Positions 59 to 17,203 of a stretch of 64,000 bases of DNA are shown in pieces (within the stretch, counting starts at the first letter, position 1; each line of letters starts with the position of its first letter). The position numbers and the translations under genes are program-made. The DNA is from a virus. Lineage: Duplodnaviria > Caudoviricetes. The notes under the pieces were generated by a model that was not told the origin of the DNA, ran no database searches, and saw nothing but the letters and a program-made list of their open reading frames with translations. Where the stretch lies: IMG/VR virus record IMGVR_UViG_3300021425_003554. One strand, given 5' to 3'.

Positions 59-952
59 ATGGAAAAAAAATATTATTATTCAGAGATATTCTATTCGATA
101 CAAGGCGAAGGACATTATACCGGTATTCCCACTGCTTGGATACGTTTCTTCTTGTGTAATCTACAGTGCAACGGATTTGGACAATTAAATCCAACCAATC
201 CAGACACTTATGAATTGCCATTTGAAGAGTTTGATGTTTCTACTGTGACAAGAGTAGAGGATTTACCTGTATGGAATAAAGGATGTGATTCGTCATATAC
301 TTGGGCAAAAAAATATAAACATTTAATGGGTCAGGCTACTGCATCGGAACTAGCAGACAAAGTCATTGATATATTAAAAAATGATTCTAATCCAACAGGA
401 TCGTTTCTGCATCCTGTGTCTAGGCAACAACAACATCTTTGTATCACAGGTGGGGAACCACTTATGCCTCAGTCTCAAAAAGCATTTATAGAAGTCTACA
501 AAGAACTAGTGAAAAGAAATAACATACCGGAATCTATTACATTTGAAACTAACGGCACACAAAAACTCACAGATGAATTTAAAGAACTTGTTAGAACTAT
601 AGATACAGAGATATTTTTTTCAATATCACCTAAACTATGGACCGTAGCCGGAGAAAAACGAGAAAAAGCAATAAGGCCTGATATAGTCAAGGAATACAGA
701 GAATTATCATTACAAGGACAACTAAAATTTGTTCTAGGCAACAAAGACGAACAATGGAATGAAATGGAAGAGGTTCTGAAACTGTTTAGATCGACAGGTA
801 TCGATTATCCTGTATGGATCATGCCAGTGGGTGCTAGGGAAGAAGAACAGTCAGCAACAGCAGGTGAAGTGGCAAAAAGAGCCTTCCAGAGAGGATATAA
901 TGTGGCGGCAAGAGTACACGTTCACTTGTTTGGTAATGCTATTGGAACATAA
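59..952 (+). CDS. queE: 7-carboxy-7-deazaguanine synthase QueE-like radical SAM enzyme
   Basis: SEIFYSIQGEG N-terminus, CNLQC...GCD cluster motif with a 38-aa insertion, ITGGEP, FETNGT, SISPK, C-terminal RVHVHLFG. Confidence 0.85.
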   Translation: MEKKYYYSEIFYSIQGEGHYTGIPTAWIRFFLCNLQCNGFGQLNPTNPDTYELPFEEFDVSTVTRVEDLPVWNKGCDSSYTWAKKYKHLMGQATASELADKVIDILKNDSNPTGSFLHPVSRQQQHLCITGGEPLMPQSQKAFIEVYKELVKRNNIPESITFETNGTQKLTDEFKELVRTIDTEIFFSISPKLWTVAGEKREKAIRPDIVKEYRELSLQGQLKFVLGNKDEQWNEMEEVLKLFRSTGIDYPVWIMPVGAREEEQSATAGEVAKRAFQRGYNVAARVHVHLFGNAIGT

Positions 953-12424: not shown

Positions 12425-13343
12425 AATAGTATTCTAGTCCTTGATCAAAAGTTGTTTCTGGTTGATAATTCAATAATTTTTTGGCTCTGGATATATCCAA
12501 TGTTCCTCTACGAGGATAAAGTTTATGAGCACCTGTATCAACTATATCACTCTTACTGCCTGTGAGTTTTATAATCTTTTCTGCCGCCACACGTAATGAT
12601 GTGGCATTGCCCGCAGTAATATTGAAACTTTGATTGGCTTCGTCTGATAATGTTGCTTTTATGATACCTTCCGCTGTGTCATTGATATAAGTAAAATCTA
12701 CTTTGTTGTCACCATCGTGTACTTCTATTGTTTCGTTATTCATTGCTTTCTGGAAAAATTTACTTAATACCCTGTCTTCCATGTCTCCTGGACCATAGAC
12801 TCCGCTCGGTCTTACTATTGCATAATTTATTTTATGTTGAGCGTGATAATGTTTGACGAATCGTTCCGCAGTTAATTTAGATTCTCCATATAAATTGTTC
12901 GGTTTGGTATCTGCGTCTTCTTTGGTTCCATCGGAGAAGTGTCCGTATATCATTGACGAACTAACAAACACAAACTTTTTCACAGGCATATATTGGCAAT
13001 GAGAAAGAAGATTTACTGTTCCTCCTATAATATTTTGTACTCCCACCCACGGATTATTGTTTACTATTTTTGCTCTAGGATATGATGCTAGGTGTATCAC
13101 ATAATCTGGTCTATTTTTAAAAGCAGACAATACATCATCTTGTTTTGTTACATCTCCATTTTTACAATAAACCTTTTTCCAATTTCTCTGTCTCCAAGAA
13201 TATAATTTTTCGAGATCTTTTTCCGAAATCACTCCGTATGTTTCTTTATTATCCATTACTACAACACTATGGTTCATTTCAATTAATCTTTCAACAATCC
13301 TAGATCCTATAAAACCATAACCTCCTGTGACTAAAATTCTCAT
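12399..13343 (-). CDS. NAD-dependent NDP-sugar epimerase/dehydratase (extended SDR)
   Basis: VTGGYGFIGS, SSS, YGESK (YxxxK), GVYGPG, DFTYIND. Confidence 0.92.
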   Translation of the reverse strand: MRILVTGGYGFIGSRIVERLIEMNHSVVVMDNKETYGVISEKDLEKLYSWRQRNWKKVYCKNGDVTKQDDVLSAFKNRPDYVIHLASYPRAKIVNNNPWVGVQNIIGGTVNLLSHCQYMPVKKFVFVSSSMIYGHFSDGTKEDADTKPNNLYGESKLTAERFVKHYHAQHKINYAIVRPSGVYGPGDMEDRVLSKFFQKAMNNETIEVHDGDNKVDFTYINDTAEGIIKATLSDEANQSFNITAGNATSLRVAAEKIIKLTGSKSDIVDTGAHKLYPRRGTLDISRAKKLLNYQPETTFDQGLEYYYEWLQNKI

Positions 13344-14827
13344 AAAACTTTTACTCCATATTTGTTGGTAAATGCTTTACCATCATCTTTGTCATTTACT
13401 ATAGGTTGTCCTTTTATATTCAAACTGGTGTTAAGCAGTATAGGGCAACCTGTTTTCTTTTTCCATTGCGTAAGCAATTCATAAAACCCTGGATTGTCTG
13501 CTTTAGACACTGTTTGAACCCTACTCGTGTTATCGTAGTGTATTATGGCAGGAAAGTCTTTACCATGCGTACAAACCGCTGTGTGTTGCATATAAGGGGT
13601 GTTTTTAACACCTTTAGGTAGGGTAAAATACTCGTTCACATCCTCTTCTAATATGGCTGGTGCGAATGGTCTAAACTTCTGTCTTTTTTTAATACCATTT
13701 ACCAAATCCTTGATTTTTGATCCTCTAGGATCAGCAAGTAATGATCTATTACCAAGTGCTCTTGGTCCAAACTCCGCCCGACCATTAGCCACTCCCACCA
13801 TTTTATTTTCCAACAATTCCTTTATGAGAGCATCCACAGGATATTCTCCCTCTATGTTCGTGCCCAAAAATGGATGTTTCCAATTTAGGTGTCTGTGCAT
13901 CGAAGCGGCTATACAACCCAACGAACTACCCGCATCTCCGGGGTTGGGCATGATCCATGATTTATCGTATATTTTCTTGTTCATTAAGATTGCATTGGCC
14001 ACACAATTTAATGCCACGCCTCCACCATAACATAAATTACGACTTTCACCATATTTGCTCACAGCACGTTGTCCGTCTGGTATGTAAGTCGTACTCCATT
14101 GCCATATATGAGTGAGTGCTTCTTGTATGACTTTTTGAATGGATGCGGCAAGATCCATGGGATCCGCTTCCGGTAACCAATTTCCTATTCCTCTGTGTAA
14201 ATTTCTTTTTAATTCCAGGGTTCGATAATCTAACAATTCATTGTAGATATTATCTCGGTACTTTGGTGTTCCGTATGCTGACATTCCCATCAATATGTAT
14301 TCTTCCTCTGCGGGTTTCAATCCAACTCTTTGTGTAAAAGCAGAATATAAGATTCCCAGTGAATGAGGATATTCCATGCTTTCCAGTTTTTCTATTTCGT
14401 TGCCTTTGGCTTTCCATATAGTCATAGTTTCCCATTCTCCTATGGCATCCACACACAACACCATGGAATCTGTAAAGGGCGATGTGAAAAAACTTCCGGC
14501 CGCATGCGAATGATGATGATCTACATACTGGTCAATTTTGATTCCAAACTGTTTTAAATGTTCCGATGGCAGATTCTGTGTTGTAAAAACTTCCGACCAT
14601 TGTCCCGCTCTAATCTGTCGTTTCTTTTTTAACCATGGTTTTTCATAATACACCACTTTGTCAAAAGGACCATAACTCATTGCCTCGTTCACTATCCCCC
14701 AGTTCAGGTGATGATCATTTTTTATCTTGCTGTATCTCTCGCTATGTGCGGCCCATAGAATATCTCGGCCGTCAACCACAGCCATGGCGGCATCATGATT
14801 CATACAATTTATTCCTAATATTCTCAT
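13340..14827 (-). CDS. NodU/CmcH-family carbamoyltransferase
   Basis: HDAA, SERYSKIKND, HHHSHAA, DAIGE, GGVALN, PGDAGSSLG, EFGPRALGNRS, RPFAP, LNTSLN. Confidence 0.93.
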   Translation of the reverse strand: MRILGINCMNHDAAMAVVDGRDILWAAHSERYSKIKNDHHLNWGIVNEAMSYGPFDKVVYYEKPWLKKKRQIRAGQWSEVFTTQNLPSEHLKQFGIKIDQYVDHHHSHAAGSFFTSPFTDSMVLCVDAIGEWETMTIWKAKGNEIEKLESMEYPHSLGILYSAFTQRVGLKPAEEEYILMGMSAYGTPKYRDNIYNELLDYRTLELKRNLHRGIGNWLPEADPMDLAASIQKVIQEALTHIWQWSTTYIPDGQRAVSKYGESRNLCYGGGVALNCVANAILMNKKIYDKSWIMPNPGDAGSSLGCIAASMHRHLNWKHPFLGTNIEGEYPVDALIKELLENKMVGVANGRAEFGPRALGNRSLLADPRGSKIKDLVNGIKKRQKFRPFAPAILEEDVNEYFTLPKGVKNTPYMQHTAVCTHGKDFPAIIHYDNTSRVQTVSKADNPGFYELLTQWKKKTGCPILLNTSLNIKGQPIVNDKDDGKAFTNKYGVKVL

Positions 14828-15207
14828 AAAGATTCTATATATTTTTTTAATTCTTTATCCTGCACATCGGTAGGTATTTCATTTTTGTAAAATATCCTAT
14901 AACTATCACTGCCATATTTTCCTATTCCGTGTAGATCCGACGCATCTTCACCATCCCAGGTTAAAAATTGCTCGCTCATTTTTCTCAATCTTTCCGATCT
15001 CACACGCCACATTCCCAAAGGTTTTAATAATTTTTGCTGTGCTGATAATCTACCTTTGAGGTAACTTTTGGCATTCGGATATCGTTTGAATAATTCACTT
15101 AAAACACGTTTGGCTTGTTTTCTGTAAGTTTGATTGAGGCAGATAACACCCACCATGTGTTGCCATTTGTTTTTGACCTGCTGTTGTACCATTAGATCTT
15201 CTCTCAT
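14824..15207 (-). CDS. MBD4-like HhH-GPD DNA glycosylase (stand-alone catalytic domain)
   Basis: W..MV..ICLNQT, LLKPLG, HhH LHGIGKYGSDSYRIF and QDKELKKY parallel the MBD4 motifs LNRT, LLKPLG, LHGIGKYGNDSYRIF and EDHKLNKY. Confidence 0.78.
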   Translation of the reverse strand: MREDLMVQQQVKNKWQHMVGVICLNQTYRKQAKRVLSELFKRYPNAKSYLKGRLSAQQKLLKPLGMWRVRSERLRKMSEQFLTWDGEDASDLHGIGKYGSDSYRIFYKNEIPTDVQDKELKKYIESL

Positions 15208-15569
15208 ATCAGTTCTCCACGATCACGCATCTGTTGTCTTATATTTGTTGCGGATATCTTTTGAGTTTCTTCATCTAACACTATTTCTTCTATTTTGTAA
15301 CCCACACCCCTGCCATAACATATGTTTGTTATGTTGGGTACTAGTATCACTTTGAACTGCCCTTCAAACTCGGGATTGAGCCTTTCCTCAATATTTTTCT
15401 TAACAGTTTCAAAATCAAATGGATTGTCATCAACACCTTGTACATCTCTGACCATTATCAATACCTGCCCTGTTTTTTTGTGTATCTCCTGGAACAATTT
15501 ATAGTGCCCGTCATGGAACGGTTGCCATCTTCCTAGCATTTGTGCTGTTGGTTTTTTATTGTCCCACAT
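15204..15569 (-). CDS. HxGH nucleotidyltransferase (cytidylyltransferase/NadM-like)
   Basis: LGRWQPFHDGH motif and C-terminal ISATNIR. Confidence 0.8.
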   Translation of the reverse strand: MWDNKKPTAQMLGRWQPFHDGHYKLFQEIHKKTGQVLIMVRDVQGVDDNPFDFETVKKNIEERLNPEFEGQFKVILVPNITNICYGRGVGYKIEEIVLDEETQKISATNIRQQMRDRGELI

Positions 15570-15993
15570 TTTTCTTCTCCCATATTATATCTCGTATTTC
15601 CTGTGTTATCAAAAATGCCCAAGTCTCAGCATCTTTTGATGTACATCTAAAATCAAACGTTGTCGGTGGCTGAAAAAGTTTGTTGGTGTCCTCAAATCTA
15701 CCCTCTTTGATTGTGTCCATCCATATCAGATAATCTGCTTTGAATTGTGCTCTTGTTTCTTCAGTGGGGCAAACAAAATCAGCGATCACAACTCTGCCTT
15801 TGTCTAACGCCTCTTCGGCGTACGTCCACATCCTCAGTGCTTGTCTCTTTCTGCCTTCGTCTGAGAAATCCCAATCATTGCATTCTTCTCTTATCTTGTC
15901 AGCATTTAGCCATACAGCATTCAACCTTGGTGCTATCATTTTTGCCAATGTAGTTTTGCCCGATCCGGGTAGTCCCATTATCAATATTTTCAT
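15556..15993 (-). CDS. adenylylsulfate (APS) kinase-like P-loop kinase
   Basis: GLPGSGKTT, LNADKIR, DWDFSDEGRKRQ, ADFVCP. Confidence 0.75.
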   Translation of the reverse strand: MKILIMGLPGSGKTTLAKMIAPRLNAVWLNADKIREECNDWDFSDEGRKRQALRMWTYAEEALDKGRVVIADFVCPTEETRAQFKADYLIWMDTIKEGRFEDTNKLFQPPTTFDFRCTSKDAETWAFLITQEIRDIIWEKKNVGQ

Positions 15994-16553
15994 TTTAGTT
16001 TAAAAAACCCTTTCGCTCTTTCTAAATACTTGTTCCATTGTTCCAGTGTAATGTCATATTCAAAATTTTGTGTTGTGTCGTTGCGTTGTAATAGTTTTGC
16101 TCCGTTCTTTATATGAAACCTTTCGGCCATTTCTGTCAAAGGACTTAAAGTGACTAATCTTTCTATGTGTTGTTCTCTTTTAAATTTTTTAAAAATTTCG
16201 TTTAATATGTGTTTTCCGCCACCTTTCATTTTGGCCCAAACTGTATAAGCAACTGCTATTTTTCCCACTATGCCTGCCCGCAACACTGACGGACCGGCCG
16301 CATCACGACTCAACATATCTAGTTCTTCGACTGTTGTGGGGATTTCATTTGTGAATGCTATGCATATGATTGCCATGATATCACCATTTTTGTTTTTGAG
16401 TCCATAAATTTTTCTTCCGTAGATAGTACGAAATGTGAGAGACAATTCCGGTCTCACCGGATCCTCTGTTATATCTATATCATTCATTTCGATCAAACTA
16501 AATTTAGAATTCTTTCGAAAAATATTGTTTATTTTTTCTTTTAATTTTTCCAT
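15990..16553 (-). CDS. miniature malonyl-CoA decarboxylase-like (GNAT-fold) protein
   Basis: ICIAFTNEIP, AVAYTV, LVTLSP and RFHIKNGA parallel the MCD motifs VAL...I, AIFYSI, TLSP and RFHLxNGA. Confidence 0.55.
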   Translation of the reverse strand: MEKLKEKINNIFRKNSKFSLIEMNDIDITEDPVRPELSLTFRTIYGRKIYGLKNKNGDIMAIICIAFTNEIPTTVEELDMLSRDAAGPSVLRAGIVGKIAVAYTVWAKMKGGGKHILNEIFKKFKREQHIERLVTLSPLTEMAERFHIKNGAKLLQRNDTTQNFEYDITLEQWNKYLERAKGFFKLK

Positions 16554-17203
16554 TTTGTAAAAACTACTTCTTTTTTTCTTGATCTTCCAAATTCTTTATA
16601 TCCCACACTGTCTAAAAACTCTATTATTTGTTTTCCTTTTCTTCTTTGTGCTTCATTTTTATGTTCTATTTCCACGTTCAATACACAGTCATTATTTCGT
16701 AGTGTTTCTTCGCCGCCTAATAAGATGTCGTATTCACTACCTTGTGTATCAATCTTTATTAGATCAACATCGGTAAATTTAAAATCATCTAATTTTTTTA
16801 CTTGTAATTCAGATTTATCAACATTATCTTCAAATATTTGATCTCTAAAAAAACTATGTCCTCCTGATGTTGTAGGACTGATATAAAATTCTTTGACTTC
16901 TTCTTTACTACCTAAACCAACTTCATGTAAAGTGAAGTTTTTATAGGTTTTTAAATTTTCTTTAAGACATTTAATATTTGACGGATCCGGTTCAAAAATT
17001 ATCACTTCATTGAACTTATTACAAAAATCTTTGCTCCAAAATCCAATATTGCCACCTATATCAATTGCTTTTCGAAATTGTTTTACTCTGGCCAATGCAT
17101 ATTCTCGTTGAAGGCGTTGATACGTTGTTTCATTGTTGATACGCATCCATTCTTCATAATGAACATCATAGTCTGGCAAAAACCAATTGTGTACTGTTTT
17201 CAT
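16541..17203 (-). CDS. FkbM-family SAM methyltransferase
   Basis: AIDIGGNIG, IFEP, GLG, LIKIDTQGSE. Confidence 0.88.
   Translation of the reverse strand: MKTVHNWFLPDYDVHYEEWMRINNETTYQRLQREYALARVKQFRKAIDIGGNIGFWSKDFCNKFNEVIIFEPDPSNIKCLKENLKTYKNFTLHEVGLGSKEEVKEFYISPTTSGGHSFFRDQIFEDNVDKSELQVKKLDDFKFTDVDLIKIDTQGSEYDILLGGEETLRNNDCVLNVEIEHKNEAQRRKGKQIIEFLDSVGYKEFGRSRKKEVVFTKWKN

Follow-up and report, generated by a model that had tools for sequence, protein, structure and literature searches.

A predicted stand-alone MBD4-type DNA glycosylase within a sugar-tailoring operon of an uncultured coastal giant phage

In eukaryotes, MBD4 stands guard over methylated CpG sites. It removes thymine (T), uracil (U) or 5-hydroxymethyluracil (5hmU) opposite guanine (G), but not 5-methylcytosine (5mC). 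A functional analogue is MIG, which likewise excises T or U paired with G and which in Methanothermobacter is found together with a C5-methyltransferase. Here, we describe a stand-alone gene of the MBD4 type on the minus strand of a 64,000-nucleotide (nt) stretch of phage DNA, IMG/VR record IMGVR_UViG_3300021425_003554 (Duplodnaviria; Caudoviricetes), the whole of which we call the window. The enzyme kind itself is known; the window protein, the bare MBD4 catalytic domain in 127 amino acids (aa), is a new viral member of it with a changed helix-inserting residue. Phage MBD4-type enzymes were neither described nor assayed in any paper found by our literature searches, and no family in PHROGs matches the 127-aa protein. 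We consider it probable that the gene encodes an active, monofunctional, cluster-free MBD4-type glycosylase, which starts base excision repair of deaminated cytosine in phage DNA and travels as an optional passenger in a glycan operon.

Judged by its sequence together with a structure model, the protein is essentially certain to be an MBD4-type HhH-GPD (helix-hairpin-helix) glycosylase domain in both fold and family. The Pfam HhH-GPD model (PF00730) matches residues 19-116 with 29.5 bits against a gathering cut-off of 26.2. When all PDB chains are searched with phmmer, the best 15 matches are MBD4 glycosylase domains (E-values 2.4e-19 to 5e-18, residues 11-124), and the next families are endonuclease III (E 3e-4) and MIG (0.33); overall identity to MBD4 is 34-38%. 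The AlphaFold2 model, built from a 64-sequence alignment, has an all-helical two-lobe fold (mean predicted local distance difference test score, pLDDT, 96.1; predicted template modelling (TM) score, pTM, 0.89). Foldseek places MBD4 glycosylase-domain structures at all of ranks 1-16 (TM 0.80-0.85, root-mean-square deviation about 2.1-2.3 Å for most, 34-38% identity), with MIG, endonuclease III and MutY below them, and mouse MBD4, human MBD4 and Arabidopsis MBD4L take the first three places in the Swiss-Prot part of the AlphaFold database. As C23 is the only cysteine in the 127 residues, there is no [4Fe-4S] cluster loop, and the chain ends 10 residues past the Asp motif. The open reading frame (ORF) holds the glycosylase domain alone: its 5' limit is set by an overlapping upstream gene, which leaves no room for a methyl-CpG-binding domain (MBD), and Pfam gives no MBD match. 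The original prediction for this stretch had called the protein MBD4-like, and sequence, predicted structure and residue conservation all agree with it; in the comparison with other HhH families (endonuclease III, MutY, MIG, OGG and AlkA), MBD4 is closest by both sequence and structure and none lies nearer.

The gene and its landmarks are as follows.

14824..15207 including the stop, minus strand: stand-alone MBD4-type HhH-GPD DNA glycosylase gene, 127 aa, ATG start (ORF list, Pfam, phmmer against PDB, AlphaFold2, Foldseek)
15215..15218, minus strand: GGAG Shine-Dalgarno-like element, 7 nt 5' of the ATG, within the end of the upstream gene (read from the sequence)
15184..15186, minus strand: codon for Gln8, aligned with the base-contacting Gln449 of human MBD4 (alignment and conservation)
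15130..15132, minus strand: codon for Gln26, at the position of human MBD4 Arg468, LN-R-T becoming LN-Q-T (alignment)
14911..14934, minus strand: codons for the helix-hairpin-helix motif LHGIGKYG, residues 92-99, including Tyr98 (alignment to MBD4 chains)
14857..14859, minus strand: codon GAT for Asp117, aligned with the catalytic Asp560 of human MBD4 (alignment and homologue conservation)

The 127-aa protein contains LHGIGKYGSDSYRIF (residues 92-106) and QDKELKKY (residues 116-123), and the ORF list and translation bear out that both motifs, on which the original prediction was built, lie in one 127-aa frame. The wording "nearly identical" to MBD4 holds for the helix-hairpin-helix segment (14 of 15 positions in human and mouse) but not for the Asp segment, in which 4 of 8 positions agree (QDKELKKY against EDHKLNKY). 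The single residues are compared by the human MBD4 numbering, which is consistent with the alignment to PDB chains. On this mapping, Asp560 corresponds to Asp117, Tyr540 to Tyr98, Gln449 to Gln8, Leu508 to Met66, Arg468 to Gln26 and Lys562 to Glu119. Gln449 and Tyr540 are the base-pocket residues of the MBD4 crystal-structure papers, and Tyr98 occupies the position at which bifunctional HhH enzymes have their lyase Lys, Lys120 in endonuclease III.

Conservation was assessed in two sets. Across 64 diverse family members, comprising stand-alone forms and eukaryote-type C-terminal domains, N25, G65, G96, D117 and L120 are invariant, Q8, W15, L24, P44, R70, G94, Y98 and F106 are at least 90% conserved, K97 is likewise close to invariant, and the Arg468 column is variable. 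Among 41 ungapped marine IMG/VR homologues, Q8, N25, M66, R70, G94, G96, K97, Y98, D101 and D117 never vary, position 26 is split between Leu (22) and Gln (19), and the median pairwise ratio of nonsynonymous to synonymous substitution rates (dN/dS) is 0.115, which indicates purifying selection. Invariant catalytic and pocket residues combined with a low dN/dS mean that this is a maintained enzyme gene and not a relic. Catalytic competence of the 127-aa protein is likely, and tyrosine at the lyase-lysine position predicts a monofunctional glycosylase.

At its 3' end the glycosylase gene shares an ATGA with the carbamoyltransferase gene (glycosylase TGA at 14826-14824, carbamoyltransferase ATG at 14827-14825), so the stop-start overlap claimed at the outset is present in the sequence. 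A second ATGA joins the 5' end to the upstream 121-aa gene (TGA at 15206-15204, glycosylase ATG at 15207-15205). In a scan of the 10-29.5 kb block, promoter and terminator consensus sites were not more numerous than in shuffled sequence. Given the two overlaps, the GGAG element and the lack of excess sites, the simplest reading is that the glycosylase gene lies inside a long operon on the minus strand. Its nearest neighbours are listed below.

13340..14827, minus strand: NodU/TobZ-type O-carbamoyltransferase, 495 aa, downstream neighbour (Pfam Carbam_trans_N and Carbam_trans_C, PHROG 1601)
15204..15569, minus strand: HxGH nucleotidyltransferase-like protein, 121 aa, upstream neighbour (Pfam CTP_transf_like, C-terminal half of PHROG 10255)
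15556..15993, minus strand: adenosine phosphosulfate (APS)-kinase-like P-loop kinase, 145 aa, in the variable slot of the cassette (Pfam APS_kinase and AAA_33, N-terminal half of PHROG 10255)
15990-16553, minus strand: unk187, 187 aa, no family match (Pfam hints weakly, at E 0.027, at a malonyl-CoA decarboxylase C-terminal domain)

The genes around the glycosylase encode enzymes of sugar pathways. Downstream are the carbamoyltransferase, a nucleoside diphosphate (NDP)-sugar epimerase/dehydratase and a DegT aminotransferase, and upstream are the nucleotidyltransferase-like and APS-kinase-like proteins, an FkbM methyltransferase and an array of radical S-adenosylmethionine (SAM)/SPASM enzymes. 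The nearest solved structures to the carbamoyltransferase are the small-molecule O-carbamoyltransferases NovN, GdmN and TobZ. The slot used by the glycosylase lies between the unk187 gene and the carbamoyltransferase gene, and the position of the APS-kinase-like gene next to the glycosylase varies among relatives. Almost every same-type cassette keeps the unk187 gene (44-66% identity), as a rule immediately upstream of either the carbamoyltransferase or the glycosylase. Across the loci compared for the variable slot (14824-17203, minus strand; L003, L008, L027, L038, L074 and L108-L137), relatives hold differing subsets of the APS-kinase-like, HxGH nucleotidyltransferase-like, pyridine-nucleotide oxidoreductase, FkbM and glycosylase genes.

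The original prediction had taken the glycosylase to be coupled to the carbamoyltransferase, and co-occurrence was therefore counted from both sides. From the glycosylase side, 80 IMG/VR loci at 65-99% identity were compared, with flanks of up to 10 kb each side; a carbamoyltransferase is nearby in 9 of them, and elsewhere the gene sits in a CHASE2-cyclase block (39 loci), after uvsX-uvsY-uvsW (21), or in other or too short contexts (12). From the carbamoyltransferase side, a glycosylase is present in 8 of 30 same-type cassettes (at least 65% identity, at least 2.5 kb available upstream) and in none of 42 more distant carbamoyltransferase loci. The 22 glycosylase-free cassette contigs carry no copy elsewhere, in contigs that cover only 3-29% of the estimated genomes. 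In the glycosylase gene tree the cassette and uvsW contexts interleave, and well-supported branches force at least 4 changes of the cassette label. Functional coupling of the glycosylase to the carbamoyltransferase is not supported. The cassette exists without the gene and the gene exists without the cassette; hence, the overlap reflects compact operon packing and not a shared pathway. The window glycosylase should accordingly not serve as evidence that the adjoining tailoring cassette modifies DNA.

Two other accounts of the position were tried and rejected. One was a partner gene kept across loci: what lies immediately upstream in each of the three main contexts (the unk187 family, c32 and c2) shows no homology from one context to the next, and nothing observed points to a protein partner. 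The other was a uvsW-downstream locus with an inserted island: uvsX, uvsY, uvsW and the flanking proteins have no match in the window.

In other phages the gene is found among genes of DNA metabolism. In 21 related loci (for example L031:5017-10384), uvsX, uvsY, uvsW and two small conserved ORFs precede it, a context that places the glycosylase in the recombination and repair module of T4-like marine phages. On divergent phage contigs it lies beside RecA-like, Fpg/Nei or deoxycytidine monophosphate (dCMP) deaminase genes. In phage Xp12 the homologue QNN97216.1 (MT664984.1 46973-47455; L002:5875-6357), annotated as hypothetical, matches MBD4 at E 5e-14 and follows the DNA polymerase and helicase genes, directly upstream of a haloacid dehalogenase (HAD) hydrolase, a ThyA homologue, a dCMP deaminase and dihydrofolate reductase. 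The only cultured cyanophage match, in S-TIM54 (OP053362.1; L001:4277-4663; 63% identity), lies among small ORFs after a helicase gene and is not near any carbamoyltransferase.

Two further neighbourhoods were seen on the way. In the CHASE2 block of 39 viral loci (for example IMG/VR contig 3300026136_000413, L055:1446-3371 and neighbours), the glycosylase is found with a 641-aa CHASE2-domain adenylate/guanylate cyclase, a sensor type that is unusual in phage, and with an Rv2179c-like 3'-5' exoribonuclease, a HIT protein, a PTPS/QueD-like protein and an Fe-S assembly protein. On the phage-like contig Ga0642624_01666 of the Joint Genome Institute (JGI; L103:5342-7441), a divergent stand-alone MBD4-type gene is preceded, at a distance of about 0.8 kb, by an Fpg/Nei-type glycosylase gene (Fapy_DNA_glyco and H2TH), and the pair would be a two-glycosylase repair cluster.

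In the repair that we consider probable, the helix-hairpin-helix would bind duplex DNA and a pyrimidine would be flipped into a pocket lined by Gln8 and Tyr98, with Gln26 and Met66 filling the gap left in the helix and Asp117 cleaving the N-glycosidic bond. The abasic site would then be handled by a host apurinic/apyrimidinic (AP) endonuclease, a phage or host polymerase, a flap nuclease and a ligase. The likeliest substrates would be uracil and thymine (or 5-substituted uracils) in mispairs with guanine, as cytosine deamination leaves them, and a phage with a very large, AT-rich genome would gain from carrying fewer C-to-T mutations. In this lineage the gene has landed in the variable slot of the sugar-tailoring cassette, where it would be co-transcribed and translationally coupled with its neighbours while remaining outside their pathway.

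Several points weigh against this picture. The DNA-inserting pair Arg468/Leu508 is not kept, with Gln26 and Met66 in its place, and Glu119 stands at the position of Lys562; Arg468 of MBD4 enters the helix opposite the flipped base, and its change to Gln or Leu may mean a mismatch or sequence-context specificity that differs from that of MBD4. Activity data for stand-alone viral members were not found in the literature searches, and no phage AP endonuclease turned up, though no search for one was made. Within cassette-bearing phages the glycosylase is always directly upstream of, or at most 1.8 kb from, the carbamoyltransferase. Such constant closeness would be compatible with some function or regulation at the locus itself, and the repeated landing of the gene beside the carbamoyltransferase is the remaining caveat.

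Among the other explanations, the one that survives best, while still unlikely, retains the fold and changes the lesion: with the Arg finger lost, the specificity of the viral clade would have shifted, possibly to oxidised or alkylated pyrimidines, to uracil in any context, or, in phages that modify G, to mispairs opposite 7-deazaguanine. HhH-GPD enzymes do change substrates through small pocket changes, and Gln, which together with Leu replaces Arg at position 26, is the plug residue of endonuclease III. However, the residues that hold the flipped pyrimidine in MBD4 (Gln449 and Tyr540) are conserved. For the deazaguanine variant, a 297-aa radical SAM protein is encoded at window positions 59-952 (plus strand), two genes upstream of RNase H, and in a large homologue group the glycosylase is 0.7 kb from a PTPS/QueD-like gene. 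The best NCBIfam matches of the 59-952 protein are all QueE (7-carboxy-7-deazaguanine synthase), so this gene may hint at a deazaguanine pathway, but at E 4e-12 they lie far below the family cut-offs, and a search of five related contigs gave no homologue of TGT/DpdA or of QueC.

Less likely again is that the phage has modified cytosine, as 5mC, 5-hydroxymethylcytosine (5hmC) or 5-carbamoyloxymethylcytosine made by the carbamoyltransferase, and that the glycosylase clears deamination products (T, 5hmU or their derivatives) opposite G that ordinary uracil glycosylases miss. A phage carbamoyltransferase acting on 5hmC in DNA is documented (PMC8670742, MetaGPA), and the glycosylase gene, when in the cassette, is always next to the carbamoyltransferase gene. 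Xp12, the phage with the homologue described above, carries 5mC instead of C in its DNA (PMC7653180; bioRxiv 10.1101/2024.12.05.627091), and its ThyA homologue makes 5-methyldeoxycytidine monophosphate (5mdCMP), according to biochemistry as cited in bioRxiv 10.1101/2024.12.05.627091. The Xp12 glycosylase is a candidate for T:G repair in a genome whose cytosine is all 5mC; our literature searches found no paper on QNN97216.1. S-TIM54 encodes a C5 DNA methylase (142150-143367), ThyA (145397-146239) and ThyX, and a figure legend annotates its group with a DNA alpha-glucosyltransferase (PMC10087341).

For the window phage itself the evidence runs the other way. We searched 20 related carrier contigs (about 1.2 Mb), each estimated at 3-56% of a genome, fragments in which absence is weak evidence; there was no match to C5-methyltransferase (PF00145) and no ThyA homologue (PF00303) above cut-off. 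ThyX, present in 3 of the 20, points to ordinary synthesis of deoxythymidine monophosphate (dTMP). Carbamoyltransferases that modify DNA are found alongside ThyA homologues and dCMP deaminases (PMC8670742), whereas the one here has an NDP-sugar epimerase, a DegT aminotransferase, an FkbM methyltransferase and radical SAM enzymes for neighbours; within the window's cassette we found no ThyA-homologue dCMP hydroxymethylase, no dCMP deaminase and no MazG-like gene. Moreover, 22 of the 30 equivalent cassettes do without the glycosylase. The suggestion in the original prediction that the phage carries modified cytosine is not supported, and what it retains is indirect merit, as a family-level lead through Xp12 and S-TIM54.

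The glycosylase could also be a weapon or discriminator, attacking host or competitor DNA (for example deaminated or unmodified) for host shut-down or phage exclusion, which we regard as very improbable. Phages with modified DNA do encode nucleases against unmodified DNA, as in T4, and this gene, like many that act against the host, is an accessory one that moves between phage loci. However, MBD4-type enzymes need a mismatch or a deaminated base, and no DNA deaminase was found nearby in the window; at other loci the gene recurs beside genes for recombination, repair and replication, and purifying selection on an invariant repair-type active site neither discriminates nor favours this explanation. 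The more specific proposal of an attack on methylated host DNA found no support, and it would need a deaminase first because MBD4 does not excise 5mC. That the fold has been reused as a catalytically silent DNA-binding or regulatory factor of the cassette is scarcely credible: the protein is very small and sits amid a non-DNA operon, but its catalytic Asp and pocket residues are invariant family-wide under purifying selection, and the cassette usually lacks the gene.

The MBD4-type stand-alone family is very large and mostly viral, with thousands of marine sequences. A word-indexed search returned 3983 clusters at 90% identity, mostly marine, some of which carry the JGI names 'methyl-CpG-binding domain protein 4' or 'endonuclease III'. 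An exhaustive HMMER search gave 1323 clusters at 50% identity (375 at E <= 1e-10), in which stand-alone forms of 120-210 aa are mixed with long proteins that have the domain at the C-terminus, and the ESM Atlas clusters closest to the window protein are viral without exception. In cultured phages, tblastn gives matches in S-TIM54 (63%), in Xanthomonas and Stenotrophomonas phages of the Xp12 group (about 30%; carriers Xp12, with QNN97216.1, AXL_1, DoCa6 and FMYAK-P1), in a Janthinobacterium phage and in an Aeropyrum virus. The homologues of S-TIM54 (UYE97365.1) and the Xp12 group are annotated as hypothetical, ENDO3c or endonuclease III, and they match MBD4 best in PDB, at E about 1e-14 for the Xp12-like phages.

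The phage that carries the window gene is an uncultured coastal giant. CheckV completeness of near-identical IMG/VR contigs is 23% at 84 kb and 47% at 172 kb, from which the genome is roughly 360 kb. The window also encodes T4-type RNase H, a MoxR/DUF2201 pair, tail-fibre-like genes and a 4815-aa ORF. DNA near-identical to window positions 13300-16600 (82-99% of sampled words) occurs in seawater, estuary, salt-marsh and coastal metagenomes from many studies. Metatranscriptome contigs from 3 studies (salt-marsh and aquatic libraries) cover the glycosylase gene and bridge both of its gene junctions, with DNA carry-over possible and with contigs giving neither strand nor expression level.

The family offers small, easily expressed candidate T:G and U:G glycosylases with natural variation at the helix-inserting residue, of possible use in enzymology and in methylation or deamination sequencing chemistry, and the Xp12 case gives a testable idea of how all-5mC genomes limit C-to-T decay. 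A broader thought, which we hold to be improbable, is that this large family mainly guards phage genomes with altered bases (5mC in Xp12-like phages; modified C or G in marine giants) from deamination decay. If so, the window copy beside the carbamoyltransferase would mark a still-unknown cytosine modification, for example carbamoylated 5hmC, and the catalytic domain of eukaryotic MBD4 could descend from a phage/prokaryote pool.

Set against known systems, the window gene differs from the 5hmC carbamoyltransferase module, in which a ThyA homologue is linked, with or without a dCMP deaminase or MazG-like gene (PMC8670742), an association not seen in the window cassette. The DNA-associated clade of that carbamoyltransferase is marked by diagnostic residues at TobZ W408, G421 and R423. 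With the Xp12-group and S-TIM54 homologues it shares the stand-alone MBD4-type domain in a phage, although those phages have or probably have modified cytosine, whereas no cytosine-modification gene was found in relatives of the window gene; the Xp12 homologue is part of a nucleotide-modification module and the window gene part of a glycan cassette. MIG/Pa-TDG (PDB 1KEA; Q7LX22, P29588), endonuclease III and MutY are fellow members of the HhH-GPD superfamily, but the similarity is much weaker (E 1e-4, TM 0.73, 14-24% identity) and they have a C-terminal [4Fe-4S] cluster loop that the phage protein lacks. Arabidopsis MBD4L (Q0IGK1) likewise has an MBD4-type domain without a functional methyl-CpG-binding domain (TM 0.80, 29% identity), but it is a 445-aa protein with a long N-terminal region and a nuclear role, whereas the phage protein is the bare domain. 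From the glycosylase domain of mammalian MBD4/MED1 (human about 426-580; PDB 4DK9, 4E9G, 4EVV, 6VJW, 7KZ0), the phage protein differs in being complete at 127 aa without N-terminal methyl-CpG-binding domain or linker, in having Gln (Leu or Gln in its clade) for Arg468, Met for Leu508 and Glu for Lys562, and in being phage-encoded within a sugar-tailoring operon, with its activity predicted. What the two have in common is the same compact cluster-free HhH-GPD fold, a near-identical helix-hairpin-helix segment, and a catalytic Asp, a Tyr in place of the lyase Lys and a Gln/Tyr pocket that are aligned and conserved.

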